Positions 2,644 through 30,177 of a DNA stretch of 30,440 nt are shown here, one piece after another (the stretch's first letter is position 1; each line of letters starts with the position of its first letter). The stretch is from a virus. Taxonomy: Duplodnaviria; Heunggongvirae; Uroviricota; Caudoviricetes. The position numbers and the translations under genes were made by a program. Location: the IMG/VR virus record IMGVR_UViG_3300035521_000566, one strand, 5' to 3'. The notes beneath the pieces were generated by a model that was given only the letters and a program-made list of their open reading frames with translations, was not told the origin of the DNA and made no database searches.

Positions 2644-2672
2644 ATTATACCCTCATAAATGAGAATAATCAA
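2644..2672 (-). promoter_or_regulatory. P1 sigma-A-like promoter
   Basis: TTGATT (2672-2667), 17 bp, TATAAT (2649-2644) on the minus strand, immediately after a terminator. Confidence 0.75.
2652..2663. promoter_or_regulatory. Candidate operator 1, CTCATAAATGAG, in the P1 spacer
   Basis: Perfect CTCAT-AA-ATGAG palindrome; one of six copies of the motif. Confidence 0.65.
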
Positions 2673-2676
2673 GTGC

Positions 2677-2713
2677 AAAAGCAAAAGAAAAGTCCCTGCT
2701 CTGAACTTTTCTT
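2677..2713 (-). terminator. Intrinsic terminator after the pilin-like gene
   Basis: Minus-strand RNA AAGAAAAGUUC-AGAGCAG-GGACUUUUCUU followed by UUGCUUUU. Confidence 0.7.
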
Positions 2714-2795
2714 AACGACAATTTCAGAAACAGAGACTTATGTCTTTTGATTTTCTTTTAGCCAGCTAAAAGCCTTTATATGTAAAACGGCATGC

Positions 2796-3125
2796 TTAGA
2801 AAAATCTACTCTGAATCAACGGTATAACTGTTGTACCGAGGTCTTCGATGGTTTTCTTACCACCCTGGGCAATGTTAGAAACAAATGTCCATCCACCTGC
2901 AAGTAATGCACCACCGACAATCAACATAACGATAGGACCTACCCATCCGCCTGGAGCTGACTGAGGTGAAATGAACTTCTGAGCAATCTTAACGATAGCT
3001 ACAATAATCATAACAACACCAACAAGCATTATTAAGCTTCCACCCCATGTGATTAACTGGCTCTTAGAATTCTCTAAGAAACTTGTAAGGTCCCATGCCA
3101 TCTGGATAAAGTTCAATGTACTCAT
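2796..3125 (-). CDS. VirB2/TrbC-like pilin (two TM helices, 109 aa)
   Basis: AGGAG RBS; two hydrophobic helices (WGGSLIMLVGVVMIIVAIVKIA; WVGPIVMLIVGGALLAGG) separated by a short loop; size and context fit VirB2-like proteins. Confidence 0.6.
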   Translation of the reverse strand: MSTLNFIQMAWDLTSFLENSKSQLITWGGSLIMLVGVVMIIVAIVKIAQKFISPQSAPGGWVGPIVMLIVGGALLAGGWTFVSNIAQGGKKTIEDLGTTVIPLIQSRFF

Positions 3126-3187
3126 ACCTTTGCTCTCCTTTCTGATTTATAAACATCAAACTGTTGGTTACTAAATTAACCATATTG

Positions 3188-3216
3188 ATTATAAAACATA
3201 TAACACAAAATGTCAA
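3188..3216 (-). promoter_or_regulatory. P2 perfect-consensus promoter for the pilin-like gene
   Basis: TTGACA (3216-3211), 17 bp, TATAAT (3193-3188). Confidence 0.85.
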
Positions 3217-3235
3217 CTCTTTACAAAAAAAATTT

Positions 3236-3247
3236 CTCATAAATGAA
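3236..3247. promoter_or_regulatory. Candidate operator 2, CTCATAAATGAA, 19 bp upstream of the P2 -35
   Basis: Motif copy read directly from the sequence. Confidence 0.6.
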
Positions 3248-3263
3248 AAGAATTTTTTTTCTC

Positions 3264-3309
3264 CATATATGAGGAGAATTGCTAATAATTTACAACTCTC
3301 CTCAATATG
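3264..3309. other. Imperfect long hairpin just downstream of the VirB6-like stop codon
   Basis: CATATATGAGGAGAATTG ... CAACTCTCCTCAATATG; no U-tract on the minus strand, so a terminator role is uncertain. Confidence 0.45.
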
Positions 3310-3321
3310 AATTATTGATGA

Positions 3322-6300: not shown

Positions 6301-7392
6301 TATTATTTTCGTAGCAGGCGATACTCCTGTACCTATATCTTCAGACATACTATTAAGAGCCGATGTATAAATTCCACTCAACAACGGAATGCCAATTACA
6401 AGAAATGCAATTCTAATTATATACTTCTTAAGCATTGATTTCCATTTACCCGTATGCCTAAATAACACGATTGATACAACCAGTACCACGAAAAATATAG
6501 GTATTAAAACTTCCCACGAAAAATTATATAATAATTTATACCACTTAGCTAGGACAGTTACTAAACCAGCAAAGGCTGTATTTGCAAGACCACCTGCTGT
6601 TGTTGATGTATCATAGCCCGACATCTTAAGCTTACTGCTAGAAGCAACCGAATTTACACCACTGTAAAACAACTGAAATGGATTCAGTGCTTTTAATACT
6701 GTAAATATAATTTGGAAAAACATATCTAATCCAATAGATAACATATACAGCAAATAGATAAGCCCGCCTGTTATCACATTCATCATATGTACGCTTACTT
6801 CATATCCTGTCTTATCAAGACCTGCAGTTGCTAAAACAGCACCATAACACGCATAATCATACACTACGTTTGTTTTAGTTCCACCGCTACTACTTACAGG
6901 TATATTAGAAAATGTATCATATGATGACGATGTTGTAGCCATAGTAAGCAAAGACGATAGCCATGATTTACCACCATACGCTACAAACAAACCTGCATTA
7001 CCTGCAATAACAGATGTATTGTCTTCATACTTAGAATTTAACATACCAACACCTGGGATATTACCTGTTGAAGCGTCTGGCGAAGAATTCGTTGAAAAAT
7101 AAATAGAAGCAACTTCACCAACATCCTCCAACGAAATAGCAGACTCTACAGTCTCCTCATTGCCATCGCCAGTAAGTACATCTGCAGCTGCATCAATTAC
7201 CTCAACTGTATTTTTCACAAAACCTGTAACAGCTTTACAAGCTGTACTGACAGTAGACTTTACAGCACTCCACGCCTTCTTAAGCCAACCAGCTTCGGCT
7301 TGCTGCGGCGTTACTAATGCCAGACAGAACATACAGGCTATAAGAGTGAAAATAATCTTACATGAAATTTTTTGTGTCTTTGAAACTTCCAT
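3322..7392 (-). CDS. Giant VirB6-like polytopic membrane protein (1356 aa) with large loop and ~500-aa low-complexity C-terminal tail
   Basis: Signal-like N-terminus (..QQAEA|G), about 6-8 hydrophobic segments in two clusters around a ~330-aa loop, then a G/A-, N/D- and K/Q/A-rich tail; TAATG-coupled to the VirB4-like gene. Confidence 0.6.
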   Translation of the reverse strand: MEVSKTQKISCKIIFTLIACMFCLALVTPQQAEAGWLKKAWSAVKSTVSTACKAVTGFVKNTVEVIDAAADVLTGDGNEETVESAISLEDVGEVASIYFSTNSSPDASTGNIPGVGMLNSKYEDNTSVIAGNAGLFVAYGGKSWLSSLLTMATTSSSYDTFSNIPVSSSGGTKTNVVYDYACYGAVLATAGLDKTGYEVSVHMMNVITGGLIYLLYMLSIGLDMFFQIIFTVLKALNPFQLFYSGVNSVASSSKLKMSGYDTSTTAGGLANTAFAGLVTVLAKWYKLLYNFSWEVLIPIFFVVLVVSIVLFRHTGKWKSMLKKYIIRIAFLVIGIPLLSGIYTSALNSMSEDIGTGVSPATKIILSTFVDFESWAEHGRLSLNSADGTTLKLSSTTNNKGVRVASGTTKINVRNIAFQINKAYAFATQRAVLGDTLFTDYSYSSSNNEVVSVTVSEDIASTSANTSFQRSSIISTTTDILNRYMDGKYYTSGEFEALVKAQLTGWATTAEKGNVILNQFTTIVDVSSFYVSKDDECYKSHRGRLVDLYHFGTAIEEDTNNDDQLIETSGGNSSYAINIYANGGLKNVGGSYQDSGSTPTWQNSYGADSTGNTYTVAGSYGLSTCSMYNYLNTSFTTSALTCYSPSNIASTFVRKSHYSVNIVGTGLTSALYWLNCFMMLLCYVVVGYFYGLGMMFSNISRMFQVVKAVPFALLGTIKSIAELITYALVMILEVIGTIFLFDIIIEIMFSIPNIFTGTLYAAFNASDSNSLVNWGMPIILIFLAIFYGWFMMKALKVRKKFIKSLSEAAEEIVDKFLDVKTDVVAGGSPGAAGGKSVIGGALGGAAAGLGAAMASNTITKDAAKNEDGNGPDDGDDGPNGGNGVSNSATAINNNNADNSTENNNDDARIDNPDSNRDAIDKKEAGLIGTSLGDSKSADDSKSVGGSGKSIGERHGEIKEQAGLDKEARGLNKEANGLEKEAKGDDKVAKGEAKKKAGKDLKKKAAKDGAKGAAMSAMGVAAMSTPGTRLAGAGLYVAGKAQQVKSAAELAAAKHKESSGKRDVKSGEKMQAKGQKMQAKGQKIQKKGIEQQVKGQTKQVKAQDNKIAKNTAKSEKAQTKADKKAVKAQERTSAAAVAKRSQAQELRSTANTTNSKNDNKPKNVSGKQANAQKVQSRNANVSAGQSQQTTAGQTQSGEAPRKQSVRKAMINGARQGAAQVKANRAADGSLKQQYYQSKADTYSQNQKMENYHQKYGTPAAGQAQASAPKVQTVKQQQAPARPTQTTVVKQQQVSARPTQTTAPKTQTVKQNTVVEQNTVIEQRQQVVTQRQQVTQTKSDALKQRTKSTKNRSKGKKDE
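3497..3582 (-). repeat. 45-nt in-frame tandem repeat (~1.9 copies; ARPTQTTVVKQQQVS)
   Basis: GTTGTCTGAGTAGGTCTAGCTG at 3497 and 3542; CCTGCTGCTGTTTAAC at 3522 and 3567. Confidence 0.9.
4141..4194 (-). repeat. 21-nt heptad repeat (KMQAKGQ KMQAKGQ KIQK)
   Basis: Visible at both DNA and protein level. Confidence 0.8.
4450..4512 (-). repeat. 21-nt heptad repeat x3 (GLDKEAR GLNKEAN GLEKEAK)
   Basis: Visible at both DNA and protein level. Confidence 0.85.
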
Positions 7393-9266
7393 TATAATCT
7401 ATTCCTCTCCTTTCTGTGTGCATCAATGCCTAATTGTAAATTCTGCTGGAACACTACGTTGTCAAAATCACGACGAATATAACAAATATCCTGATTTCGT
7501 GTTGTGACAAGCCGTGCCAAGTCTGGTGGAATCTCCTGCCCCATAAGCTTCTGATAATCCTGTACATTCGTCTCTGACATATTACCTAAGATAGTGTAAT
7601 TTGCTTTATCAAAGTGTGAAAACTCTTTATCCTTCAACATCTTCTCAATGTTGTTATAAAGATAAACCACACGACCCCCATTGTCCCAAAGACGTTCACA
7701 ACAAGTTGTAATATAGTCTTTTACACCATCGTCAATAAGTTCAGTACCGTGAATGATAACAGTATCACCCCTGCCAAGAGAACCTACGGCAAATGCAACA
7801 ATATTTACAAGCTGTGCCATTGCGATACCTTTACCACGGAGCATCAAGCTTGAGAAATCATAGATAACTCGACGTCCGTCCTTTGCACCATCAATAGCTG
7901 GCTTTGTAGTTGTATTAAATAAATCACCATTGTTTGTCAGCATATTCTTAAATGTTACTCTAAGCACTGACAAAGCATGTAATCTTTCATCATCTCTTGC
8001 TGTAGCATTCACCATTGCTTTATATTCTGTATCAAGATACGATACAAACATCTGCAGCTTTGGTACCTGCTCATGTGGAATACCTACAACACGAAGTTTC
8101 TTACGATTACGAATTGCGTCATCATACCACATTCTATTATCTACATAGAACTTTGTAGCAATTTCCTCAAGAGAACCTCGAATGATACTTCGGTCACTAT
8201 CCGTTGTCTGATATGCCTGTTCAGCCATAAGAACCAGTTTCTGCATCTGAGCTGGAAATACAGATAATTCTTCATCTTCAGTACCAAACATTTCAAACAT
8301 ATTTACATCGCCATGATTCATATCAACTCTATATGTAAATGAATTAAATGCTGGTCCCAACTCATCTAACTTAGCACCATCTAATATAAGATGCACTGTT
8401 CTGTGTCCGCCTAACAGACAACTCTGAGAAATCTTACTACCCCATACATCAGCTGTATGGGCTCTGTTCAGCTCAGAATCATAATTCTCATTTGCAATGA
8501 CTGTATGATGTCTGTAATTATCTACATCAAACAAAACCGCTGAGTTATTTACATCGCCAATCATATAACCTACATACTCACCAGCTGGGTCTTCCAGACC
8601 ATGTGTTACGATATTATATGAACCTGCATATTCTGTTGATGTAAAATAAAAGCCATGACCGAGCTTCTTATCTGGCGGATTGAAAAGCTCTGTAAGTTCT
8701 CTTCTCTGCTCACCCATATAAGGAGCTGCCTCTAATGTGGCAAATCGGTCTATATACAGTCTTGAAATCTTCTGAAGTGCGTCATCCAATTTCTCTAATG
8801 TTGGTGCCTTTACAAGCAGACGATACTGACAATGTAAATATGATGCTCCATTCTGAATTTCCTGAGCAACCATCTGCAAATCATATTCCCTTGTTGCTGC
8901 TCTCATCTTTGTTGTATTTGTACCGACCTGACCCTGTTCTTTCGCATTCATTCCTGCAACCTGTTCAGCTTTGGTCTGATGCTGTGTCAACCACTTTTCA
9001 TCCATACGATGTATGTTTTCAAAGCAAAATGTTGAAACATCCTGTGCCAAACCACTTGGTATTCTGTTAATACCCCAGAATACACCGAAATTATCGGTTG
9101 CACCCTCTGTATGAAAGAAGCTCAACACTGAGGCTACTGAGTTGTCAATTTCAAAGTAATCACTATGAAATACATACTTCTCATTTGGCTTCATTGCAAG
9201 TAGATGTGGAAAATTCGAAAATGCATGTGGGTCTTCTTTTTTCTTCTTCTTTTTGCCAAATGCCAT
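7392..9266 (-). CDS. VirB4/TrsE-like protein with degenerate Walker motifs (624 aa)
   Basis: N-terminal DYF..., ...LQMVAQEIQNG..YLHCQYRLLVKAPTLEKL...EQRRELTELF layout fits TrsE/VirB4; the C-terminal order (RVIYDFSSL, TVIIHGTE, RVVYLYN, ANYTILG) follows the VirB4 C-terminal domain, but there is no GxxxxGK[ST] anywhere. Confidence 0.65.
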   Translation of the reverse strand: MAFGKKKKKKEDPHAFSNFPHLLAMKPNEKYVFHSDYFEIDNSVASVLSFFHTEGATDNFGVFWGINRIPSGLAQDVSTFCFENIHRMDEKWLTQHQTKAEQVAGMNAKEQGQVGTNTTKMRAATREYDLQMVAQEIQNGASYLHCQYRLLVKAPTLEKLDDALQKISRLYIDRFATLEAAPYMGEQRRELTELFNPPDKKLGHGFYFTSTEYAGSYNIVTHGLEDPAGEYVGYMIGDVNNSAVLFDVDNYRHHTVIANENYDSELNRAHTADVWGSKISQSCLLGGHRTVHLILDGAKLDELGPAFNSFTYRVDMNHGDVNMFEMFGTEDEELSVFPAQMQKLVLMAEQAYQTTDSDRSIIRGSLEEIATKFYVDNRMWYDDAIRNRKKLRVVGIPHEQVPKLQMFVSYLDTEYKAMVNATARDDERLHALSVLRVTFKNMLTNNGDLFNTTTKPAIDGAKDGRRVIYDFSSLMLRGKGIAMAQLVNIVAFAVGSLGRGDTVIIHGTELIDDGVKDYITTCCERLWDNGGRVVYLYNNIEKMLKDKEFSHFDKANYTILGNMSETNVQDYQKLMGQEIPPDLARLVTTRNQDICYIRRDFDNVVFQQNLQLGIDAHRKERNRL

Positions 9267-10144
9267 TACATTAAGTCTCCTTTCTTATAGATTGAACCTA
9301 AAAACTCAGTAATATCGTCTTCATACAATGCAACACAAGATTTGAACATTCTTGTTGAATTTTCTACCTCTGCCTGAAGTACATTTTTATTCTGAGTCAA
9401 GGCTTCTTTGTTATTAGCCTTAATAACTAAATACTGATGAATAGATTTGAACTGTGCTCCTACATAATTCTGCAGTGTATCAAACTGGTCTTCCGCCAGA
9501 GCCTTAAGTTCATCATCATTCTTGCCAAGTCTATCGTATTTACGTTTCAAGGCTGCAACCTGTCTGTACACCTTCTGTGGTTCCTTGACTGTTACGAATA
9601 TTATATCACAATTAGTACCAATCTTACGAAAGAATGAATCTACTCGTGAAATAATTGCGTCTTTGTCTTTGTCAAATAACAAGATTGATGCAGCACCAGT
9701 AATTCTGTAAATATAACCGAATGAACCATCTACGTATTCAATCAGTCCATTCTCGTTAATTTTACGAGTTCTGACAATTCCCATAAACTCATTTGCTGGC
9801 ATCGTTCTTCTGACAATTACGTGTCGATTTAGTTTCGGTATATATTCCACCAACGTAGGTATTATCTGCACTTTCATTCGCCGTGTTTTGTCATATGATA
9901 CCATAACGGATGTTAGTCCCATCCAAATAATGCCAAACAAAATCTGTTGCCACAACTTACCGTCAGCTACGAATGAATGAGAAATCATCCAGAATAAAAC
10001 AACAGCTGAGCCGAGGAACGTCAGAATAACTTTAATCGGTAATGGTTTCAAACCCATACCGTCTTTACTCTGAATAGCAATTTCCATATCAGCATAACTG
10101 GCATTCAAATCGTGTGGAATCTTATATGCCTCTTTCACTGCCAT
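9266..10144 (-). CDS. VirB3/PrgI-like two-TM protein fused to a TrsD-like soluble domain (292 aa)
   Basis: Start moved to ATG 10144 (MAVKEAY) because AGGAG lies 11 nt upstream; two TM helices, then ~200 soluble residues; TAATG-coupled to the VirB4-like gene. The TrsD-like call is by recalled pattern and position. Confidence 0.5.
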   Translation of the reverse strand: MAVKEAYKIPHDLNASYADMEIAIQSKDGMGLKPLPIKVILTFLGSAVVLFWMISHSFVADGKLWQQILFGIIWMGLTSVMVSYDKTRRMKVQIIPTLVEYIPKLNRHVIVRRTMPANEFMGIVRTRKINENGLIEYVDGSFGYIYRITGAASILLFDKDKDAIISRVDSFFRKIGTNCDIIFVTVKEPQKVYRQVAALKRKYDRLGKNDDELKALAEDQFDTLQNYVGAQFKSIHQYLVIKANNKEALTQNKNVLQAEVENSTRMFKSCVALYEDDITEFLGSIYKKGDLM

Positions 10145-10196
10145 AACAGGTATAACTCCTTTCTCTTTAAATTCTTTTAATATATAACGAAATGCA

Positions 10197-10218
10197 AGGA
10201 GAGTCGAAAGACTCACCT
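10197..10218. other. Short hairpin between the topoisomerase and VirB3-like genes
   Basis: AGG(A)GAGTC-GAAA-GACTC(A)CCT; weak U-tract on the minus strand. Confidence 0.35.
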
Positions 10219-10248
10219 CACATTGTTATTGCTGCGTCAACGAATTAT

Positions 10249-12426: not shown

Positions 12427-12510
12427 ATTGTAATTCTCCTTTCGGGCGTCAACGTTTTCTCTCAGACGTTTGCCGTAATAATTGCAAGGTAAACAAACCC
12501 TTACTGGAAT

Positions 12511-12539
12511 ATAATAACATATTCGGCTTTTAAATGCAA
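12511..12539 (-). promoter_or_regulatory. P3 promoter (topoisomerase-T4SS operon)
   Basis: TTGCAT (12539-12534), 17 bp, TGn-TATTAT (12516-12511). Confidence 0.6.
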
Positions 12540-12548
12540 TAAAAAATG

Positions 12549-12560
12549 CTTATTTATGAG
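12549..12560. promoter_or_regulatory. Candidate operator 3, CTCATAAATAAG (minus strand), 9 bp upstream of the P3 -35
   Basis: Plus strand reads CTTATTTATGAG. Confidence 0.6.
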
Positions 12561-12563
12561 AAG

Positions 12564-12592
12564 AAAAAAGAGGCTCGATAAAATCGAGCCTT
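12564..12592 (-). terminator. Intrinsic terminator
   Basis: AGGCTCGAT-AAA-ATCGAGCCT perfect 9-bp stem, followed on the minus strand by CTTTTTTC. Confidence 0.85.
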
Positions 12593-12599
12593 GAATTTA

Positions 12600-13088: not shown

Positions 13089-13118
13089 AATTCAGTAATA
13101 CCGTCCTTTCATACAGAA

Positions 13119-13151
13119 GGTGAGCCAAGTTTAAAGCAACTTCAGCTCACC
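13119..13151. other. Intergenic hairpin
   Basis: GGTGAGC-c-AAGTT-taaagc-AACTT-ca-GCTCACC; no good U-tract. Confidence 0.45.
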
Positions 13152-13157
13152 CAATGT

Positions 13158-14336: not shown

Positions 14337-15044
14337 TTAACGAATCGGTCTGCCGTTTTGAACAGCATCATGTTTACGCTTTGTATCAGCCTGTTCATCG
14401 ACTCGCTTCATTAAATCTTCAACTCCGTTTTCTAATAAATTTACGTCTCTAGGAGAACGTGCCTGTTCATTTCGATAACCTAATCTATCGAACGCAACAT
14501 ATGCCATTAAAAGATTCAAAGATTCAAGCATCTTTTTAATCTCTCTGACCGAATTTTCGAGCGAAGTAACTCGCTTCTCAATATTAGCAACTGTATGGTC
14601 GCCTTCCCAATCATCAACCAACTCTCGAATAGAATCCGAGATGGCAACATTTTTGCCAGACTTTACGTATACATATGCTGCCAGAGCATCAGTTTGATTC
14701 TGTGCTGATGGGAATTCCGATTTTGCTATTGCCAGCAAGTTCGTAGGAAAGTCTCTGATAGAGGCTTTCTCACTTGCTTTACGTCCTGCATGTGCTTTTG
14801 CAGAACGAGAAGATGTTCCAGTATGTTGAGCCGTCATTTTCTTAGATGTATCGTATACCTCAGTAGTAACATCAGTCTGACTTTTCTCAATAGCAACATC
14901 TTCTGTCGTAGCTGGTGGCTCCTCTGAAGGTTTTACTTCATCCTTTGGTCTTACTTTTGGAATGTCAGGGACAACATTATCTGGTGCCGTATTACCGCCC
15001 TTTTGAGATTGTATCTCAAGGATTTCTTCGTATGAAAGACCCAT
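14337..15044 (-). CDS. Hypothetical protein (235 aa): disordered N-terminus, possible degenerate RHH, coiled coil
   Basis: TAATG-coupled to the RHH gene; SIRDFP-TNLLAIAKSEF...NQTDALAAYVYVK has strand-helix-helix spacing; IEKRVTSLENSVREIKKML is heptad-like. Confidence 0.55.
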   Translation of the reverse strand: MGLSYEEILEIQSQKGGNTAPDNVVPDIPKVRPKDEVKPSEEPPATTEDVAIEKSQTDVTTEVYDTSKKMTAQHTGTSSRSAKAHAGRKASEKASIRDFPTNLLAIAKSEFPSAQNQTDALAAYVYVKSGKNVAISDSIRELVDDWEGDHTVANIEKRVTSLENSVREIKKMLESLNLLMAYVAFDRLGYRNEQARSPRDVNLLENGVEDLMKRVDEQADTKRKHDAVQNGRPIR

Positions 15045-15367
15045 TATACATCACCATCCTCGTCTTCTAACAAGTAGTTATCACCTCTTGTAAGACCTAA
15101 CAGCGAATCAAAACCTGATATAACAATCTGTTCCATACTGTTCACATTTGACGACAATACTGTTATTGCGTCTATCAGCTGATTCAATCTCTGCTGCTCT
15201 AATGTTGGCAGGTCATAATCTTCGTTTTCCCGTTTGATTGCACCTTCAATGGCGTCTCTCAGATACTCATTGATGGAACACTGATGCTGTGTAGCCCAGT
15301 ATGATACCTGCTGAAATAACTCCTCAGGAATCGTAGCTGTCACTCTATGATTAGAATTCTTAATCAT
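15044..15367 (-). CDS. Ribbon-helix-helix (CopG/Arc-like) DNA-binding protein (107 aa)
   Basis: Start moved to ATG 15367 (AAGGAG 8 nt upstream). HRVTATIPEELFQQVSYWATQHQCSINEYLRDAIEGAI is a classic RHH pattern, followed by a helical oligomerisation-like region. Confidence 0.75.
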   Translation of the reverse strand: MIKNSNHRVTATIPEELFQQVSYWATQHQCSINEYLRDAIEGAIKRENEDYDLPTLEQQRLNQLIDAITVLSSNVNSMEQIVISGFDSLLGLTRGDNYLLEDEDGDV

Positions 15368-17958: not shown

Positions 17959-17987
17959 AGTATAACATAAAAACACTCATAAATCAA
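17959..17987 (-). promoter_or_regulatory. P4 promoter (sortase operon)
   Basis: TTGATT (17987-17982), 17 bp, TGn-TATACT (17964-17959). Confidence 0.7.
17976..17987. promoter_or_regulatory. Candidate operator 4, CTCATAAATCAA, overlapping the P4 -35
   Basis: Motif copy read directly from the sequence. Confidence 0.6.
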
Positions 17988-18056
17988 TAGATTTTAAAAA
18001 AATTGACACACTTTTAGCACACTTTTTAACAAAGATTAGACTTTCAATCTCTAAAA

Positions 18057-18362: not shown

Positions 18363-19313
18363 TTATTTTGCTATTGCATTCATATAAAGCTCTTTGTACA
18401 CATCTCGTTCTGCACACACTTTTATGTAATCTGGTGATGTTGACACATCAGCGATTACAGTAGCAGGCTTAGACTTTATATCGTCAAGCTCTCTTGCGAG
18501 AGCGTCAACTTTTTGATTGTTATAAGAGCATCGTTCCAGCCATGCCTTGAACTCAGCCGCTGAATCCATTACGATTCCAGCATTGTCACCAAAATGTTCT
18601 TCTAATATATCAAGTATAAATAAACCTGGTGTCTCAACATGCTCTGAAACATCAGACTTCATTTCTTCAGATTTTGCCTGCAACAATGCATCATCAGCTT
18701 CTGAAATCTGATTCAGCTGCGTTGTCGTATAGGACTTGGCAAGCTCGTCCTTCCATGACTCTAAAATATTTACACCGACTGACTTTTCATTAAAGTTCAA
18801 TGCCAAGCCGAGTGCCAGAGCATCGTTAATCTTTTTCATTTCACTCATTGTACACTGATTTACATATTTGCCAATACGCTTTTTCGACACAGTGTAAATC
18901 TGGTCACAGATTACAGTTGATTTTATACCCGTTGCCATTATAATCACATTCGTCGGTAAATTATTTCTGGGATGCGTAGTAAGATAAGCTACTTCTACTA
19001 AGCCCTGCATTTCGTTATTCATATCGTTTGATATAATAACAGCTGGTCTTCCGCCTACAAAAGTTGAACTATCCGAAGCTGACTCACCTTCGGGTACTAC
19101 ATAATATATTTCGCCACGACATACACGGCGTTCTGAATTTGTACGATTTGCATTCATATCGTTTGTTACCATCCTTTCGACTCTCATTGTTTGGTATGAC
19201 GACGGCTCAATTCCCATCTCACGCTCTACTTTATCAAACAGAGCCATCAGTTTGAGCTGCTCATCATATGTTTTCATATTTCGGTCCAATTTTCTTGATT
19301 TAAACTGAGGCAT
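18363..19313 (-). CDS. PemK/MazF-family endoribonuclease-domain protein with N- and C-terminal extensions (316 aa)
   Basis: RGEIYYV...GGRPAVIISND.NN....VEVAYLTT...STVICDQIYTVSKKRIGKY....M.KINDAL..GL (18798-19121). A shorter start at ATG 19157 is possible. Confidence 0.85.
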   Translation of the reverse strand: MPQFKSRKLDRNMKTYDEQLKLMALFDKVEREMGIEPSSYQTMRVERMVTNDMNANRTNSERRVCRGEIYYVVPEGESASDSSTFVGGRPAVIISNDMNNEMQGLVEVAYLTTHPRNNLPTNVIIMATGIKSTVICDQIYTVSKKRIGKYVNQCTMSEMKKINDALALGLALNFNEKSVGVNILESWKDELAKSYTTTQLNQISEADDALLQAKSEEMKSDVSEHVETPGLFILDILEEHFGDNAGIVMDSAAEFKAWLERCSYNNQKVDALARELDDIKSKPATVIADVSTSPDYIKVCAERDVYKELYMNAIAK

Positions 19314-19316
19314 AGG

Positions 19317-19607: not shown

Positions 19608-19630
19608 AGTTGCACTCTCCTTTCAAAAAT

Positions 19631-19870: not shown

Positions 19871-19900
19871 AAGTCCCACTCCTTTCCGTTGTACAAATAC

Positions 19901-19929
19901 ATTATACACTGATTTATGAGTATTTTCAA
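19901..19929 (-). promoter_or_regulatory. P5 promoter (TM / coiled-coil / MazF-like operon)
   Basis: TTGAAA (19929-19924), 17 bp, TATAAT (19906-19901). Confidence 0.75.
19909..19920. promoter_or_regulatory. Candidate operator 5, CTCATAAATCAG (minus strand), in the P5 spacer
   Basis: Plus strand reads CTGATTTATGAG. Confidence 0.6.
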
Positions 19930-19983
19930 GTAGGTAATAGCAAAAAGTGTGTCATGAATAACACACCTTTTATATTACAACAC

Positions 19984-20014
19984 AAAATAAAACAGCCCCA
20001 GTTTCCTGGGGCTG
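19984..20014 (-). terminator. Intrinsic terminator after the adhesin gene
   Basis: CAGCCCCAG-GAAA-CTGGGGCTG on the minus strand, then TTTTATTTT. Confidence 0.9.
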
Positions 20015-20057
20015 CTTCTCTACTCATATGGAGCAGTGAAAGAAAGCATATATATGA

Positions 20058-23000
20058 TTACTCTTCATCAGAGTTATCATCATTTACTTTAATCTTACGA
20101 TAACCAAATACACCGATAGTTGACATTACAGCTAAGAACATAATGATAAGTGCAATCATCATAAGTGCTCTTGCATGATTTACAATACCTGTCTGTACCT
20201 TTGTGGTAGTCTTGACAGTTACTGTCTGGTCTTTGTCTTCGATGTCCTTATGCTGTGCGATGATATTTCCATCTTTATCATAGATTGTCTCGTAGCAAAC
20301 AAGTACGTGTCCATCTTTATCAGATGTATCAACTGTAAATGTCTGCTTAACTGAGCCTTCCATCTTCTCTACCTTGAAATCAGATGTTGCTGTAGCAACG
20401 ACCTTATTCTCATCTGACTTATCGACAATCTGACCAACTACCTTATACTCTGAACCTTCAACAAGATTCTCATATGTGATAGCATCCACAACCTTGGCGT
20501 CTGTAGCCATTGTAACAATCTTAGAACGTTCATCGTCTGCAGTTGCTACAGTTGAAATAGAACCGCTGTATGTGGTCTGGTCTGCATCATCAATGTCTTC
20601 ATGAGTTGCAATTGTCTTGTCATTATATGTGAGTGACTCAAATGCTACTACAGTCTTGCCTTTAATAGCACCATTCGGAATAGTGAACTCAACATCAACA
20701 GTTCCATTAGCCTCTTCAGCCTTGAATGTAACAGATGATGTGAACTTATCAGTGTTAGTAGTCTCACTTTCCGTAACTTCTGTAATAGTATTATCATCGG
20801 TCTTTGTTACCTGCGATGTATCAACAGTAGTTTCTACTTCTGTCTTTGACTGTTCAGAAGCCTTATATTCAATCTTCTTACCAGTTGCCTTATCCATCAA
20901 AGTACCAGTGATTACATAAGTCTCGCCAGGAATCAGATTTGTATAAGTTACTGTATCTACAATCTTAATCTCTGCAGATTCATCTTCAAAGATGTGTAAC
21001 TGATGCGTCTTAGTTGTCTCATCAATAGCTGATGTAGCAATTGAAGGGAATGCAACTGTCTGGTCATCATCGTTAATGTCCGTATGAGCAGCAACCTCAA
21101 CACCTTCATACTCTACTCTTTCAAATGCTACAACAGACTTACCAGATATATCAATACTCTTGAAGTTGAATGTAATATCTATGCTGCCGTCTGCCTCCTC
21201 AGGAGTGAACTTAGCACTTGCGGTAATTGTATGGTCGTTCTCATCAAGAAGTTCCTTACCTGTTGCCTTGTCCATAAGTGTACCTGTTACAGTATACTCT
21301 TTACCAGGAACAAGATTTGTGTAAGTTACTCTATCAACGAGTGTTACATCGTTTGTTGCCATACCCATATGTTCGCCTGTACCTGCATCTGTTAATGTAG
21401 TACCGATAGTTGGGAAGTAAATTGTCTGGTCTGCATCTTCTGCATCCTCATGTCTTACGACATTAGTATCAACAACTTCTCCGTTCTCGTCCTCAGCTCT
21501 GGTTACTGCCTGCTCGAATACAACGAATGTATGTCCAGCATATTCAGTAGCGTCGAACTCAAACTTAACTTCTACTGTTCCATCATGCTCTTCAGCCTTG
21601 AATGGAGTCTCTGCAGTAATGTCTGTAAGCTTACCTGCAGTCTTGTCATAAAGAGTACCCTTCATGACATACTCTGTACCAATAACGAATCCTGTATAAG
21701 AAACTGTATCTGTAATAACAGTATTCTCAGCTGCTGGACCCATGTTGACATTTGTCTCACCGTAAGTAGCTACTGTGCCAACCTTAGGGTTATAAACTGT
21801 CTGTGCCTCATCATTGATGTCTTCATGCTTAGCGATTTCAACATCTGAGTAGAACAGCTTCTCGTACACAACGGCTACATCTAAGTCTTCAACATCTGTA
21901 ACATTGAATACTACTTCTGTAGTTCCTTCAGAACCTTCGGCTGTGAATGCTGCTGTAACAACAACATCTTCACCATTAGAGTTCTGATATGCCTTGCCAG
22001 TATCTGGATTCATAAGAGTACCAGTTAATGTATATGATACACCTTCAACAAGTCCCGTGTAAGAAACTGTATCAGTTACAGTGATTAAATCTGTACTTGT
22101 ATCAATATCAGCTACTGTCTTAACTGCTACAACATGAACCGACTGGTCTTCATCGTTAATGTCGTCATGCTGTGCTACAAGCACATCATAGCTGCCTGCT
22201 GCAGCCTTACGATAAATATATTCGTATGCAACATATGTGTTACCAGCCTTATCAGTTGTATCAAACTCATAAGTTATATCTACGCTACCTTCTGAATCTT
22301 CTGGAGTAATCTCAAGAATTGATTCAGATGTTACCTTCTGTCCTGTTGCCTTATCTACTAAGTAACCCTTAACCTGATAAGTATCACCTGGTGTAAGGTC
22401 TTTATAGTAAACGGTATCAGTGAATACATGCTTACCATCCTGGTCTACAAAACGATAATTTACATCTTCGTTTGTTGACTCAGTATTGTCTGTATCTTCT
22501 GTATTATCTGAACCTTCGACTTCAGCATCACCAGCTGTAGCTATCTCATCGGATTTAACTCCAAGTCCATTGTCAACAGCAATTGATGTGTCAACTTCTG
22601 GGAATGTTACTGTCTGTGCTTCGCTATCAATGTCCTTATGCTCGGCAATCAGAACATCACCATCATAAGCCTCTTCAAATACTACTACAGAATGACCTGC
22701 AAGTTCAGATGCATTGAATGCAAATGTTACAGATGTTGTTCCACTTGACTCCTCAGGAATGAATGTTGTGTCTACTCTTACTTCTTTTCCATCAGCGTCT
22801 ATAACTACTGCCTTAGAATCTTTGTCCATCAGAACACCCTTAATAGTGTATTCTGTATTAGGAGTTAATCCCTTATAAGTAATATAGTCCACGAGTTCAA
22901 CTGAATCAAGAGCTGCACCTTCATGTGAACCTGTATCACAGTAACTTGCTACTGTTTCAAGTTCAGGGTAACGAACTGTCTGCTCTTCGTCGTCTAAATC

Positions 23001-26000: not shown

Positions 26001-29000
26001 AATATCAAACTCTCTTACCCAATCTTCATTTAACTTATATCCGTAAGGTGCTTTTGTCTCACGAATCTCATAATGACCAACAGGAAGTACATAGTTACCT
26101 GTAGAAGCAAGTCCTGTCGAATCAGTTGTGATTGTACAATAAGCTTCACCATACTTAATTTCTTTTGTATCTGTATAATTCTTAGCAGCTGTTCCTAAAG
26201 TCCATACAGACTTGCCTGATTCAGACTTATTATAAATAGTAAACTCTGCACCTGCAAAAGAACCATCGCCCTGTGGAATAGTCTGCAATGTCTCAGAATC
26301 ATATTTCTGAACATTTACACCACCACGATATACATCGTTTGAGAGTGATTCCCCAATAGGTGTTAAGTCGTAAATCTTACCGTCGCCATCGTGCGTTGCA
26401 GTATTGTTCTCATCGACAACAGTGAATGTTCTTGTATAAGCTTTTTCTTTATTAGTAAACCTATACTCGCCTTCCTGTCCGATTTCGACAATCTCATAAG
26501 TACCTGCTACTAATAAATAATTTACTGACTCATAAGGAATTACATTTCCTTCATCATCGGTATTATCCAAATCAAGAGTAACAGTTTCAATAAGTCCATC
26601 TGGTTCTACATAACGTGAAACAGTCTTTTTATCAGACTCATAAATAGGAATTCTATATGAGTTCCTATTATAAAGATTGAATGTTACTGCTCCAAGCTTT
26701 GCATCACCCTGACCATTAGTCTGGTTGGACTTAGAATCACGCTTTGTAATCTTATATCCAGCAAGAATTGGTGTTGGCTGATTAACTGTGATAGTATTAA
26801 ATACATCAAGCGTGGCAACATTTGAGCTTGTTCCATCTTGTGCTGGGATTACAATACGCATCCAGTTATTAGTACCTGTTTCTGTAGCTGTGCCATCATT
26901 GTAAGTACAAACATATTTCCAACCACTATCGTCAGATGGGGATTTATAACCTTCAGGTGATACTTCTTCTGTTATGACAACAGTGCCTGAACCAAACTCA
27001 AAAAGACCATTGTCGTTGAAATATTCATCTAAAGTATGAGTTCCATCGCCTTTGTCATAATATTTCCAAGAGCTTGTGTTAATGCATCCTTGCTTTTTAC
27101 TCAAACTTATCATATAAGACTTTTTAGTAGTTCCTGGCTGTATCAAATACTTAGTATTTGCTGTGAACTCATATACCAAATCATTCTGATGCTGAGCTTC
27201 GTTAGCCTGAGTTACATTTGTAACATTATAATACTTAAATCTGAATGTTGCATTCTCAAGGCTTGTGTCACCAACAGGATACTCTGAACCATCTTGCGTC
27301 AACTTATGCATAACCACATTAACTGGGTCAACCATAGGTGGCTCTTCGATTGTAACTGTTTGAGTATTGTTGTCTGTAGGGGCTGTAATCGTAACTGTCT
27401 GAGCTGTCACACATGCATAACCCTTAGAAGATTTAGTTTCTTCTAATGTATACGTACCAAGAGGAATATTATTGAACTTGGCAACTACATCTCCTGTAGA
27501 TTTATCAAGTGCAGTTGTACTTGTAAATGTTACTGAGCTATCCCAGCTGGCTGTCAACTTGAATTCAGCACCAGCTAAATCATAACATGGATTATTATCC
27601 GTAATAGCTGTATCAGCAGACTCTTTAATAACATTCAGCTTACCCAATACAGGTGTATTGGTTACTGTTACACTCACATCTTTATCAGCTACAGTGACCG
27701 TAGTATCTGCAGATGTTGTAAAGTTTTTAGGAGTCGTTGTCTCCTTCAGTGTGTAACTTCCACTCTGAATATTCTTCCATTTAATGCTACCACCTGCTGC
27801 CCAAGTTACATTTGTGCTATCTGCAGCTGTAACGGCTGTTGCAGCACCAGCAACTGTATTAGAACTATCATATAAAGTAAACTTTGCATCAGTAATAGCA
27901 CCATATGCTGGGTTATTATCAACATAATTAGATGGTACATTTGTAGTAAATGTCTTACTAACTGATACATTATGACCTGCATTCCACTTAAGCTTACAAA
28001 TCATAGCACCTGCCTGCGTATTTACCTTCTGAGTAACAATACCTAAGACCATGGTCTTATTTGTTGTATCTACACTCAATATAGTAAGATGAAATTTCAT
28101 ACCATCATAAGTTCCAGTTCCGCCATCTTGATTAGCAGTACCAAATATACTATTATACTCATTTACAGCTTCTGTAACAGTAGTACAATGCTGACATACT
28201 AATCCGACTTTAAATCCTGAACCAAAGTCAAGTGTTACATTTCCAAGTTTATATTTACCACTAAGCGTCATATACGACTCTATAGAAGATGTACTTGTAT
28301 CAGTAGAATCTTCAAGATGATAGGTTGTACCACTATATACTACAGTAGCATTACCACTCGTACCTGATATAGTCGTGTTACCTGTAGCTGCTAAAAAATT
28401 GATGTCAACAGCGGCATTATTCTGGGCATTTACAACAATATACTGACCTGCTGTATACTTAGTTTGATGAGCTGCTCCAGTAGATGCACTTGCATCATAA
28501 GTAATTGATGCACCAGAAAATGTACCAGATGCACTAGCCTGAGGTGTTCCGCTACATTCTACAGTAACACCGCTAATATTTGCATTTGACGCATCTGACG
28601 CAAATGCAATTACAGGATTAAACATATCTGCTAAAATAGTTGCACCCTGCTGAAAAGTAGAAGGTTTTTCAATATCAATTTCAATAGAATCGACTGACAA
28701 TGTATTTGTATTCAAAACAAGGAGACCTGTTTCTGAATCATACGAATAACAAGTTACATCACTGCTATTAGTATATACAAATTCATCTGAGTCTTCAGCA
28801 TTGTTATTCATCTCAGAATAAAAATCATCAAATGCTGATGATGGCAAAATTTCAATACTATTTATCTTAACAGTAAGATAATCTTCGTTGATAGAATAAC
28901 GTGCTCTTGCATTCTCAGCTAACTGTAATGCAATCGTTCCATCTACAGTAGTATCAACAGAAGCAACACCACTATCTAAGATTTCTCCGTTCACTCTAAC

Positions 29001-30035
29001 CGATGAAACTGATAAATCAAAATTAACGCTTGTTTCACTAATAGTCTTGTCAATAAACTGAGTGAACTGAACCTGAGTAAGAGCAAGATTGAGCATTCCG
29101 TCTTCTTCAACAGGAGTGCAATGCTCTTTTGGCATATAAATAAGTCCAGTTTTCTCATCGTAGATTGCGTCGTCGATTACTTCACCATAATTGTTATTAC
29201 GTGCAACATCAACCTGAACCAAATTATATTCAGGATTGTCGTATAATGCGTTTGCTAAACCGACAACATAATCTGCATCTTCTGACACCTCATAAAGTAC
29301 GACATAATAATCTTCAAAGTCTTCAAACGCTTCTGAATAATTGTTATCTCCAGGTGTCTGAATAACTGTAAGTACGTCGTCTGCATCTGTAATATCTGCT
29401 GGAAGCTTTGTTGAATCATAGATAGACTGCTTTACTCTAAGAGCATCATAAGCATCATCTGCTGTTAAACTACCAGAAGACTTTCCTACGTATTTAGAGT
29501 CGGCATTCTCTAAAATGTAAGATAATGTATCCTGTGGCTTTTCTGTCTCGTCGACTTCCGCCAGTGAGATACTGTTATTAAACTCAAAATCTGCATAGAC
29601 GGTTGCATCTTCCTCCTCAATATAAAACGTAAAGATGTCACCGCATAAATAGCCATCAAGTGCATTTCCAGATTCGTCTACAGCAACAATTCCTGCTACT
29701 TCGTAATACTCATCCGATGTAACCCGCACTGAAACACTACTATTGGATGATACTTTCAATGTATCAAGTCCAGAGTCTGAAACAAATTCCAAGTCGCCGT
29801 GTAGCGTTGGTGTCAGAGTAGCTGCTACGCTTGTTTCTGTTTCAGCCTGATTGCTTTCTGTTGCATCCTGCGTATCTGCGTCAGACACAGTAGATGTCAC
29901 GGATGCTTCTGAGGTGGGTTCTGCTGCATATGCTGCCATTGTTGAAATGCCGCTAGATGATAACACCATGGCACCACATAAAACAACTGACAACGCTCTT
30001 TTTACGAACTCACCAGGTTTGGCAATGTGCTTCAT
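20058..30035 (-). CDS. Giant sortase-anchored surface adhesin (3325 aa) with SpaA/Cna-B isopeptide domains and VaFE / Thr-Gln ester-bond repeats
   Basis: Start at ATG 30035 (AAGGAG 8 nt upstream); signal peptide ..MAAYA|AE; ~9 Cna-B-like domains; 10 ester-bond repeats; C-terminal VQTG + hydrophobic helix + RKIK. Confidence 0.9.
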   Translation of the reverse strand: MKHIAKPGEFVKRALSVVLCGAMVLSSSGISTMAAYAAEPTSEASVTSTVSDADTQDATESNQAETETSVAATLTPTLHGDLEFVSDSGLDTLKVSSNSSVSVRVTSDEYYEVAGIVAVDESGNALDGYLCGDIFTFYIEEEDATVYADFEFNNSISLAEVDETEKPQDTLSYILENADSKYVGKSSGSLTADDAYDALRVKQSIYDSTKLPADITDADDVLTVIQTPGDNNYSEAFEDFEDYYVVLYEVSEDADYVVGLANALYDNPEYNLVQVDVARNNNYGEVIDDAIYDEKTGLIYMPKEHCTPVEEDGMLNLALTQVQFTQFIDKTISETSVNFDLSVSSVRVNGEILDSGVASVDTTVDGTIALQLAENARARYSINEDYLTVKINSIEILPSSAFDDFYSEMNNNAEDSDEFVYTNSSDVTCYSYDSETGLLVLNTNTLSVDSIEIDIEKPSTFQQGATILADMFNPVIAFASDASNANISGVTVECSGTPQASASGTFSGASITYDASASTGAAHQTKYTAGQYIVVNAQNNAAVDINFLAATGNTTISGTSGNATVVYSGTTYHLEDSTDTSTSSIESYMTLSGKYKLGNVTLDFGSGFKVGLVCQHCTTVTEAVNEYNSIFGTANQDGGTGTYDGMKFHLTILSVDTTNKTMVLGIVTQKVNTQAGAMICKLKWNAGHNVSVSKTFTTNVPSNYVDNNPAYGAITDAKFTLYDSSNTVAGAATAVTAADSTNVTWAAGGSIKWKNIQSGSYTLKETTTPKNFTTSADTTVTVADKDVSVTVTNTPVLGKLNVIKESADTAITDNNPCYDLAGAEFKLTASWDSSVTFTSTTALDKSTGDVVAKFNNIPLGTYTLEETKSSKGYACVTAQTVTITAPTDNNTQTVTIEEPPMVDPVNVVMHKLTQDGSEYPVGDTSLENATFRFKYYNVTNVTQANEAQHQNDLVYEFTANTKYLIQPGTTKKSYMISLSKKQGCINTSSWKYYDKGDGTHTLDEYFNDNGLFEFGSGTVVITEEVSPEGYKSPSDDSGWKYVCTYNDGTATETGTNNWMRIVIPAQDGTSSNVATLDVFNTITVNQPTPILAGYKITKRDSKSNQTNGQGDAKLGAVTFNLYNRNSYRIPIYESDKKTVSRYVEPDGLIETVTLDLDNTDDEGNVIPYESVNYLLVAGTYEIVEIGQEGEYRFTNKEKAYTRTFTVVDENNTATHDGDGKIYDLTPIGESLSNDVYRGGVNVQKYDSETLQTIPQGDGSFAGAEFTIYNKSESGKSVWTLGTAAKNYTDTKEIKYGEAYCTITTDSTGLASTGNYVLPVGHYEIRETKAPYGYKLNEDWVREFDITEDNQMIDITQIAKRDTDVNLLKDSTYGCPETPIRGGIEMWKSDEDRVTSNVITEQGDNLGQGDKDLSGYLFYVVNASTTKQDVVVNGVTYHYGQVCYTLETDANGHATSDTDGDGFDETFPCGTYSLYEAGQGEQVELGYYVDADWEATVVIGGSSSDSGNIVQANSVNKKDSAHNYVEQTIWRGGVSFVKYDWDRDTNVAQGDATLKGCEFSIINRSKLPVYIDGTWYDVGEVCYTVTTDENGKAATPEKVLPYGTYEVIESKASTGYLVNPDWTRTFTIRKDGEYIHCEDTPLLEPVIRGDVQITKDDIELQKSEAMNGSDHGNDTTYDFTPNLSGINFEIYNASKLDVYVDQDGYGSDTNVTSVNGEWYEVGDLVTTITTHWNEEKQAYTAETTDRTLPYGTYLIKEVGTKGWKNNVYANDTYLLTDGDYRTFEIRKDGETVTTDTSNKSLVWDNQVVRGDFEFEKRETGTNQGMWTAWVVENLATGERHAVVTDKGGTFTSSYSPNSDDVGYPHSQNTNANDWILEKFDAGESINMADTDYTAGVWFGLGEDGTVANGESSADNTLGALPMGTYKIYEVKSDTNADYWDEPLFTEGRTFYIDGRPLHIEDLGTMENGTTPSNPTVQTVAVHDETGEHIGPATENTVIVDTVSYSGLKAGKTYYIEGTLMTKSGSIVYNKDENGENVAVTATSERFTVESVDDASGAIDMSFVFDAVAYEGQDVVAFETLYLVGEDKNGNETISVAASHKNLKDTNQTVKFPKIGTTAVVDGTETEHESLADGVVTIVDTVTYENLQVGKKYTIVGTFFDVSDNDEVRDKNGNAVTAKVEFTPTETSGTTEVKFEFDATGLEGHTIVAFEEVYYRNQVIATHANLNDTNQTISFPKVGTTANFSTGLKTGTKGETIIINDVVDYTNVIPGRSYTVTGVLMNKATGEVVKDSTTGKEVTSSAEFKADKADGTVTVTFEFDGSKFEDDEMVVFETLYNAEGSVVAKHEDLDDEEQTVRYPELETVASYCDTGSHEGAALDSVELVDYITYKGLTPNTEYTIKGVLMDKDSKAVVIDADGKEVRVDTTFIPEESSGTTSVTFAFNASELAGHSVVVFEEAYDGDVLIAEHKDIDSEAQTVTFPEVDTSIAVDNGLGVKSDEIATAGDAEVEGSDNTEDTDNTESTNEDVNYRFVDQDGKHVFTDTVYYKDLTPGDTYQVKGYLVDKATGQKVTSESILEITPEDSEGSVDITYEFDTTDKAGNTYVAYEYIYRKAAAGSYDVLVAQHDDINDEDQSVHVVAVKTVADIDTSTDLITVTDTVSYTGLVEGVSYTLTGTLMNPDTGKAYQNSNGEDVVVTAAFTAEGSEGTTEVVFNVTDVEDLDVAVVYEKLFYSDVEIAKHEDINDEAQTVYNPKVGTVATYGETNVNMGPAAENTVITDTVSYTGFVIGTEYVMKGTLYDKTAGKLTDITAETPFKAEEHDGTVEVKFEFDATEYAGHTFVVFEQAVTRAEDENGEVVDTNVVRHEDAEDADQTIYFPTIGTTLTDAGTGEHMGMATNDVTLVDRVTYTNLVPGKEYTVTGTLMDKATGKELLDENDHTITASAKFTPEEADGSIDITFNFKSIDISGKSVVAFERVEYEGVEVAAHTDINDDDQTVAFPSIATSAIDETTKTHQLHIFEDESAEIKIVDTVTYTNLIPGETYVITGTLMDKATGKKIEYKASEQSKTEVETTVDTSQVTKTDDNTITEVTESETTNTDKFTSSVTFKAEEANGTVDVEFTIPNGAIKGKTVVAFESLTYNDKTIATHEDIDDADQTTYSGSISTVATADDERSKIVTMATDAKVVDAITYENLVEGSEYKVVGQIVDKSDENKVVATATSDFKVEKMEGSVKQTFTVDTSDKDGHVLVCYETIYDKDGNIIAQHKDIEDKDQTVTVKTTTKVQTGIVNHARALMMIALIIMFLAVMSTIGVFGYRKIKVNDDNSDEE
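20215..24122 (-). repeat. Ten VaFE / Thr-Gln ester-bond Ig-like repeats
   Basis: Each has a first-strand T, D.V.Y..L..G..Y...G, V[AV][FY]E and a terminal H-x-[DN]-x-x-[DS]-x-x-Q: HKNLKDTNQ, HANLNDTNQ, HEDLDDEEQ, HKDIDSEAQ, HDDINDEDQ, HEDINDEAQ, HEDAEDADQ, HTDINDDDQ, HEDIDDADQ, HKDIEDKDQ. Boundaries approximate. Confidence 0.88.
24150..27975 (-). repeat. About nine SpaA/Cna-B-type (isopeptide-forming) domains
   Basis: Recurring G.v.i.K ... l.ga.F.i.n ... lP.GtY.i.E...p.gY pattern (VSVSK, GKLNVIK, VVMHK, GYKITK, GGVNVQK, GGIEMWK, GGVSFVK, GDVQITK, GDFEFEK). Boundaries approximate. Confidence 0.8.
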
Positions 30036-30117
30036 TTCACTTACTCCTTTCACATTATATAATGTTTTCTGCTCGTATATCAGTGTTTTTCACTAATATG
30101 CATAAGCTTGCTTTATA

Positions 30118-30146
30118 AATATACCATAAATTGGCTAAAAAATCAA
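30118..30146 (-). promoter_or_regulatory. P6 promoter (adhesin)
   Basis: TTGATT (30146-30141), 17 bp, TGn-TATATT (30123-30118). Confidence 0.6.
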
Positions 30147-30165
30147 TAGAAGATTCGTCAAAATG

Positions 30166-30177
30166 CTCATAAATAAG
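30166..30177. promoter_or_regulatory. Candidate operator 6, CTCATAAATAAG, 19 bp upstream of the P6 -35
   Basis: Same spacing and orientation as the copy at P2. Confidence 0.6.

Follow-up and report, generated by a model that had tools for sequence, protein, structure and literature searches.

We analyzed a 30,440-nucleotide (nt) stretch of DNA, referred to here as the window, which is catalogued as a virus of the Caudoviricetes (IMG/VR record IMGVR_UViG_3300035521_000566) and which a sequence match identifies as part of a 184-kb metagenome contig of the Joint Genome Institute (JGI). All the genes called in the window lie on the minus strand. Pfam domains identify a topoisomerase, a sortase, a MazF-like protein and a lysozyme-like hydrolase among their products, with most of the remaining genes lacking a match, and a megablast search of the PLSDB database with 25 kb of the window returned no plasmid match. 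The non-coding share of the window amounts to 1,841 bp (~6%), and it is there that a 12-bp quasi-palindrome, CTCATAAATNAR, is found repeatedly. An original prediction, based on the letters of the window, had proposed that this 12-mer marks all six promoters of the window and defines an element-wide regulon. In this work we examine the 12-mer in the window, in the element to which the window belongs and in related elements, and we put forward a reading of it as the probable operator of a repressor encoded by the element.

The 12-mer at the promoter regions of the element

A pattern search recovers exactly six exact matches to CTCATAAATNAR in the window, at 2652+, 3236+, 12549-, 17976+, 19909- and 30166+, with the coordinates and strands that had been predicted. 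Dinucleotide-preserving shuffles yield a mean of 0.10 copies and a maximum of 1, in agreement with an earlier hand estimate of roughly 0.1 chance copies. All six copies fall in non-coding DNA, an outcome with a probability of ~5e-8 given the size of that share, and every intergenic gap of more than 100 bp, six in total, contains one. The claim that coding DNA is nearly free of the motif is borne out by its invariant 9-mer core, CTCATAAAT, which occurs seven times: six times in the 1,841 bp of non-coding sequence and once (at 26637) in 28.6 kb of coding sequence. Allowing up to two mismatches to CTCATWWATGAG adds two weaker copies in the window, CTCATATATGGA and CTGATATACGAG, and the same search over 39 kb of the contig returns 10 copies in 2.6 kb of non-coding DNA versus 4 in 36.5 kb of coding DNA.

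Each copy had also been described as standing next to an independently found -35/17/-10 promoter. The offsets given between copies and promoter boxes are correct, but as independent evidence only strong promoters count, since look-alikes of this arrangement are no commoner in the real sequence (69) than expected from shuffles (71). The promoters that are convincing on their own are the strong ones, namely P2 (12/12 consensus positions), P5 (11/12) and the recurring TTGAT-17-TATAAT type.

At three of the six promoter regions the site lies within the core promoter. Site 1 (2652-2663, minus strand) reads CTCATTTATGAG on the gene strand, with two 5-bp arms that are perfect inverted copies around 2 central bases (5+2+5). 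It takes up the spacer of P1, whose boxes are TTGATT (2672-2667) and TATAAT (2649-2644), and is upstream of a gene for a 432-amino-acid (aa) protein and the lysozyme-like gene. Site 5 (CTCATAAATCAG; 19909-19920, minus strand) is likewise in the spacer of P5, between TTGAAA (19929-19924) and TATAAT (19906-19901), and the operon behind it consists of an 82-aa gene, a 96-aa gene and the MazF-like gene. Site 4 (TTGATTTATGAG; 17976-17987, minus strand) overlaps the -35 box of P4, which is formed by its first six bases and is followed by a -10 box, TATACT, at 17964-17959; this architecture, which recurs in many relatives, heads an operon with the sortase gene, a 569-aa gene, a gene for a ribbon-helix-helix (RHH) protein and further downstream genes.

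The remaining three copies are located upstream of the -35 box. Site 2 (TTCATTTATGAG; 3236-3247, minus strand) is 19 nt upstream of TTGACA (3216-3211) / TATAAT (3193-3188), the consensus promoter (P2) of a 109-aa membrane ('pilin') gene, and CTCATATATGGA (3262-3273, minus strand; two mismatches) provides a weak auxiliary site 26 bp further upstream, centre to centre. An 80%-identical relative presents a stronger pair of sites at the place of these two. Site 6 (CTTATTTATGAG; 30166-30177, minus strand) is also 19 nt upstream of its -35 box, in this case at P6 (TTGATT, 30146-30141; TATATT, 30123-30118), which precedes a giant gene for an LPXTG-type adhesin. P6 has a second site as well, CTGATATACGAG (30072-30083, minus strand; two mismatches), located in the predicted leader at about +29 to +40 and 94 bp from site 6, centre to centre; the identical 12-mer is found upstream of the topoisomerase gene in a relative of 66% GC (L152). 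Site 3 (CTCATAAATAAG; 12549-12560, minus strand), directly after a terminator hairpin (12591-12571), is 9 nt upstream of TTGCAT (12539-12534) / TATTAT (12516-12511), the P3 promoter of an operon comprising the topoisomerase gene, a 316-aa gene, a VirB4-like gene and a 1356-aa gene.

Further sites are found beyond these promoter regions. On the same contig and outside the window, the MobL relaxase promoter has TTGATTTATGAG as its -35 box. Behind the lysozyme-like gene, the next gene has CTCGTAAATGAG 3 nt past a TATAAT box, two copies of TAAAAT-ctt-CTCATAAATGAA stand inside a tRNA array, and a tandem pair, CTCATATATGAG and TTATATGAG, is located in front of the gene for a 303-aa protein with Myb and HTH_17 domains. 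The proposal of an element-wide motif is thus upheld, with one cis element of two-fold-symmetric core at all the promoter regions of the window and additional sites outside it.

Conservation of the site across the element family

The motif had been described as the mark of a regulon of this element, and it is shared by a whole family of elements across phyla. The VirB4-like protein of the P3 operon (7392-9266; related loci L010-L174) belongs to a very large family of more than 1,394 proteins at E<=1e-10, encoded in low-GC genome bins from the gut and in many genomes of Streptomyces, Nocardiopsis, Arthrobacter and Kribbella, with identities of 50-60%. The 80%-identical relative (L090) retains the 12-mer at its counterparts of P4, P3, P1 and the post-lysozyme promoter, within diverged surrounding DNA. 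At P3 neither the 12-mer nor its orientation has changed, and at P1 the site has shifted from the spacer to a position 9 nt upstream of a new -35 box. Because the site has moved at P1 and is kept amid differing DNA, the 12-mer constitutes a separable unit and not a piece of a promoter hexamer.

The intergenic preference of the motif holds across 61 low-GC loci (1.03 Mb), where the pattern [CT]T[CGT]ATWWATGAG yields 66 strand-hits in 69.5 kb of intergenic DNA versus 6 in 965 kb of coding DNA. The intergenic density of YTNATWWATGAG in these relatives is ~150 times its coding density, and control words that differ from it by one base give intergenic/coding ratios of 0.3 to 5. A family pattern is present in 29% of the distinct regions that precede the topoisomerase gene, as compared to 3.5% of random windows. 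The 8-mer TWTATGAG, counted over whole low-GC loci, is barely above its Markov expectation (79 versus 67), indicating that the signal resides in the intergenic share and in the 12-mer.

A scan of the host chromosome had been suggested as a check on the motif, and it was carried out on the genome bin of a relative instead of that of the window's own host. In this Lachnospiraceae bin (G002; 3.1 Mb), YTSATWWATGAG returns 48 strand-hits versus 1 for the reversed control, and all the hits map to 8 contigs, one of which has tRNA genes beside the sites. The three checks, on coding density, on the genome bin of this one relative and on conservation in related elements, hence all agree with the predicted regulon. 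A host factor is unlikely to be the reader of the site, given that the hosts belong to two phyla, Firmicutes and Actinobacteria, and that only a few contigs of G002 have hits.

In Arthrobacter and Pseudarthrobacter elements of 65% GC, CTGATTTATGAGTC and close variants are found directly past the -10 box (TAGAAT or TAGACT), preceding the topoisomerase gene (as a tandem pair), an RHH gene and a partition operon. The core promoter varies with the host, from TTGACA/TATAAT in low-GC elements to TAGACT/TAGAAT in Actinobacteria, and the site is constant. Since the core promoter follows the host and the site does not, the site must be read by something other than a host sigma factor.

Site anatomy, promoter placement and mode of action

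The core of the site is a 5+2+5 inverted repeat with consensus YTSAT-WW-ATGAG, in which the ATGAG half is strong and the other half weaker; in one-sided sites ATGAG is retained and the YTNAT half is weaker. The sequence 3-7 nt past ATGAG is an A/T-only tract, with T accounting for 50-73% of the bases at positions +15 to +19. The palindromic core CATWWATG is not strongly intergenic on its own (5 intergenic versus 6 coding occurrences), so the outer bases belong to the site; strict CTC-N6-GAG palindromes are too scarce for a family-wide test. Perfect 5+2+5 palindromes recur in distant relatives (L104, L099, L117, L153 and G002), which indicates two-fold-symmetric binding.

Three placements of the site predominate in the relatives: its first bases may constitute the -35 box (TTGATWWATGAG, followed by 11 nt and the -10 box), it may start ~3 nt past the -10 box and span the transcription start, or it may fill the spacer. 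Upstream placements are a minority. Among the 19 sites classified in G002, 11 overlap the -35 box, 5 start 2-5 nt past the -10 box, 2 are in the spacer and 1 is upstream. An overlap expected to exclude RNA polymerase is hence seen at 18 of these 19 sites, as it is at P1, P4, P5 and the relaxase, post-lysozyme and tRNA-array promoters of the element.

Based on these placements, we consider it probable that the motif is the operator of one sequence-specific and presumably dimeric protein, encoded by the element, that represses the element's sigma-70-type promoters. The reading as a repressor operator follows from the position of most sites, on the -35 box, in the spacer or ~3 nt past the -10 box of standard promoters, and one plasmid-encoded repressor is most likely because related plasmids have the site at their promoters in widely differing bacterial hosts. 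As in a global repressor regulon, one short site stands at many backbone promoters and is rare elsewhere, and in the element it overlaps the core promoter or the start at the promoters just named, and not at P2, P3 and the upstream copy of P6. At most sites, a bound protein would keep the host RNA polymerase off the -35 box, spacer or transcription start that the site covers. At P2, P3 and P6, the upstream copies could contribute through a second site nearby, by means of cooperative binding or looping; at P6, the 94 bp between the two sites correspond to about 9 helical turns, and the location of the second site in the leader would suit looping repression. The outcome would be a negative-feedback regulon that keeps the adhesin, sortase, topoisomerase/type IV secretion system (T4SS), pilin-like, hydrolase, relaxase and partition genes, as well as parts of the tRNA array, low in established hosts, and that would allow a burst of expression on entry into a new host.

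It had been suggested that the regulator possibly represses some promoters and activates others; such a dual regulator would repress at promoter-overlapping sites and activate from the upstream sites at P2, P3 and P6. Three sites of the window do lie 9-19 nt upstream of the -35 box, and their centres, near -50 to -61, are at classic activator positions. Several lines of evidence argue against such activation, which we judge improbable. The P2 promoter matches the consensus at 12 of 12 positions and needs no activator, a second site is close by at both P2 and P6, where it lies in the leader, and upstream sites are a minority across relatives, most sites overlapping the -35 box, spacer or start. 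The original argument had relied on upstream positions that differ by about one helical turn, and the shift of the orthologous P1 site in the 80%-identical relative, from the spacer to upstream of the -35 box, speaks against positional activation and deprives that argument of its force.

We also considered the motif as a promoter element, recognized by a single-chain RNA polymerase of the element itself, or as the host-factor site addressed above, and regard this pair of explanations as very improbable. In their favor, the conservation of the motif reaches far beyond that of most plasmid operators, and its TATG is reminiscent of jumbo phage late promoters. The promoter of a dedicated polymerase would be expected to have a fixed orientation and distance and to be independent of host boxes. 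Instead, sites in the element occur in both orientations with respect to the genes (5 to 2), their distances to the start codon and the -10 box vary, many are perfect palindromes, and they are accompanied by good host-type -35/-10 boxes that change with host GC.

Repression by a single symmetric protein is itself opposed by several observations. Three of the six copies in the window (P2, P3 and the upstream copy of P6) are located upstream of the -35 box, so that simple occlusion does not apply to them. The left half-site is weakly conserved, with variation at positions 1 and 3, and the T-rich flank is asymmetric, for which reasons binding may not be that of a simple symmetric dimer. The matches in high-GC elements depend on a few lineages only, as does the excess of an AT-rich 8-mer in loci of at least 60% GC (30 copies versus 3.3 expected). 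Lastly, the lineages L133-141, L145/166 and L010 have strong promoters without the site, which implies that the regulon can be lost or swapped. De novo 9-mer counts in the motif-less relatives revealed no replacement operator. Upstream of the topoisomerase gene, L133-L141 present another 5+2+5 palindrome, ATGTTGAAACAT, 4 nt past the -10 box, in the place that CTCATWWATGAG occupies in relatives; either an operator swap or a hairpin in the leader may account for it.

Other features were observed next to the sites. A direct repeat, AGTGTGCTAAAAGTGTGTCA (18004-18023, minus strand), is a second conserved cis element and is located ~16 nt upstream of the -35 box of P4. It is kept in relatives of 80% and 72% identity (L090 ~1940-1962 and L092 ~2650-2675, respectively), is also found inverted at the relaxase promoter (L001 ~20918-20945), and probably represents a second protein-binding element. 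Two successive T-run hairpins (CCCCAG...CTGGGG and GGTGTGT...ACACAC; 19947-20030, minus strand) lie past the adhesin gene and directly upstream of P5, and they look like a double terminator insulating the MazF-like operon. The start of the adhesin gene is more likely the ATG at 30035 than the mechanically called GTG at 30053, with AAAGGAG 9 nt upstream and a product that opens with a signal peptide (MKHIAK...).

Candidate binding proteins and relation to known plasmid regulons

The RHH protein of the P4 operon (15044-15367, minus strand; 107 aa), with an N-terminal strand-helix-helix domain and a long C-terminal helix, had been named as the candidate regulator within the window. Structure prediction supports the assignment to this fold: an AlphaFold2 model based on 30 homologues places helices at residues 15-27 and 32-47 after an extended N-terminus, with a predicted local distance difference test (pLDDT) score >90 for residues 11-40. 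The top Foldseek matches of the model are AmrZ, CopG, Arc, NikR and MatP, with a root-mean-square deviation of 1.1-1.7 Å and a target-normalised TM-score of 0.75-0.85 for AmrZ, CopG, Arc and NikR. Its weak sequence matches, in a PDB profile search (E 0.05-0.9) and in Pfam, are all to RHH proteins, although those to Pfam RHH_5, CopG_antitoxin and HicB (E 0.07-0.2) are below family cut-offs. Judging from the model, the protein is a genuine RHH protein, and this part of the original proposal stands.

We find it doubtful that this protein is the binder, in which case it would be a global repressor of the TrwA, CopG or omega kind that also controls its own gene. In its favor, it is present in 92 of 165 related loci with a median identity of 52%, its gene lies in the P4 operon behind a site, and its Arthrobacter orthologue is the first gene past TAGAAT-g-GACTCGTACATCAGTC. 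Sites are found upstream of 15% of its orthologues versus 3%, and its strand follows an R-x-T-x-T pattern similar to that of CopG. Against it, the motif-less lineages L133-141, L145/166 and L010 retain this protein, with the R-x-T-x-R strand of site-bearing lineages, yet have no site in 22 kb. A DNA-facing position of the strand varies between T and R in orthologues with no change in the site, and the association of His versus Lys in the RHH protein with site presence is weak and confounded by phylogeny. Moreover, the C-terminal half of the protein is the most conserved, which would suit a role as partner of the relaxosome or of a coupling protein.

It is similarly unlikely that the site is bound by another conserved protein, either a small partition-linked RHH protein that, like omega, would be both centromere protein and global regulator, or an HU-family protein comparable to TF1 of phage SPO1. 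A partition-like operon in which a small RHH gene is followed by a gene for an actin-like ATPase (Pfam ALP_N) was observed in several relatives (L196 288-2023, on contig C51 of G002; L204 2710-4609, on contig C21 of the Arthrobacter genome G001; L213 166-2005). In G002 C51 and Arthrobacter C21 this operon begins right past a site positioned 3-5 nt downstream of the -10 box, and the RHH strand, R-x-R-x-[S/T]-V-P, is conserved across phyla. An HU-family gene is common to both of these elements. For a protein of the HU type, the A/T-only flank of the site and its loose likeness to WATCAA-N4-TTR, the consensus of integration host factor (IHF), could be adduced; in this comparison, the core of the site has G at a position that is C in IHF sites, and perfect palindromes are frequent among the sites. 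Weighing against both proteins, neither the partition operon nor the HU-family gene was found in the readable 50 kb of the window's element, and they are present in 5 of 5 genomes checked, with or without sites. A further genome bin (G004) encodes a partition RHH protein of 71% identity whose own promoter presents another repeat (TGTAAA), and sites are almost absent from this bin; other Micrococcaceae copies of this RHH gene are without an obvious upstream site.

Two local candidates were rejected. The 303-aa Myb/HTH_17 protein (L175 19584-20590, in the tRNA-array region ~17 kb to the left of the window) comprises four Myb/SANT-like repeats and one HTH_17 domain. As a family-wide regulator it was discarded on account of having no homologue in five genomes with related elements, and a small HTH_17 protein of G002 resembles it at the family level only. 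None of the 165 related loci contains the operon with the 96-aa and MazF-like genes, which was for this reason discarded as the origin of the regulator. As to its products, a MazF/PemK-like domain (residues 66-168) was observed inside a protein of 304-316 aa with long extensions (18363-19313), and the 96-aa protein, which is coiled-coil-like, occupies the antitoxin position ahead of it. Three conserved DNA-binding candidates and the local Myb/HTH_17 protein are encoded behind sites, and none of them is singled out by presence/absence or covariation.

The design of the proposed regulon would fit that of the global repressor regulons of conjugative plasmids, of the kind formed by the kor, R388, omega and Rco systems. 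In IncP-1 plasmids (KorA/KorB) and in R388 (ArdK, StbA, TrwA and KorA), a few plasmid repressors act through short palindromic operators on many strong backbone promoters, an arrangement that generates negative feedback with a burst of expression after transfer (PMC3937220). The element shares with them the repeated short palindromic site on many backbone promoters. It differs from these proteobacterial systems, whose regulators have been identified as helix-turn-helix (HTH), ParB or RHH proteins, in its operator, in being a Gram-positive-type megaplasmid of ~200 kb, and in that the same site is kept across elements of 33% to 65% GC.

The omega protein of pSM19035/inc18 plasmids belongs to the RHH class and recognizes 7-bp subsites, oriented directly or inversely, at several promoters; it also serves as a centromere-binding partition protein (PMC9499535, PMC2441792). 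The 5+2+5 site may be read as two inverted heptads of this kind, and relatives have an RHH-headed partition operon behind a site. Nevertheless, omega acts at three promoters through arrays of 7-10 heptads (WATCACW), whereas the putative operators reported here are single or paired 12-mers on dozens of promoters, and the partition ATPase of the relatives is actin-like and not a Walker-type ParA. Rco of the Bacillus plasmid pLS20 is an XRE-type HTH master repressor that acts mainly on one divergent promoter pair via looping. The likeness to this system lies in a Gram-positive conjugative plasmid with a repeated promoter palindrome; the motif and the element family are different, and no XRE-type candidate was found here. 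A full-text literature search for the 12-mers yielded unrelated eukaryotic primers only, and a search for NCgl1702 led to one comparative paper without promoter data. The motif, the element family and the breadth of conservation appear to be undescribed.

A more far-reaching proposition, which we advance tentatively as a possibility, is that one small DNA-binding protein has kept the same 12-bp site from gut Firmicute elements of 33% GC to actinobacterial ones of 65% GC, silencing a whole conjugative megaplasmid of ~200 kb, with its genes for transfer, adhesion and partition, its tRNA array and perhaps its own RNA polymerase. The partition-linked RHH protein, the T4SS-linked RHH protein and the HU-like protein would be the candidates. 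If true, a very large, undescribed family of plasmids would take along a regulatory code of its own, independent of the host.

Global repressor networks explain how broad-host-range plasmids combine cheap carriage with efficient transfer, and they are known in detail for a few proteobacterial and a few small Gram-positive plasmids. Here, a single scannable 12-mer appears to mark most of the examined promoter regions of a large family of uncultured megaplasmids from gut Firmicutes and soil Actinobacteria. It can be used to map promoters and operons and to spot plasmid contigs of the family in genome bins, and it offers a route to the regulator. The constancy of the site across hosts that differ in GC content and promoter consensus would, if confirmed, be unusual for a plasmid operator.

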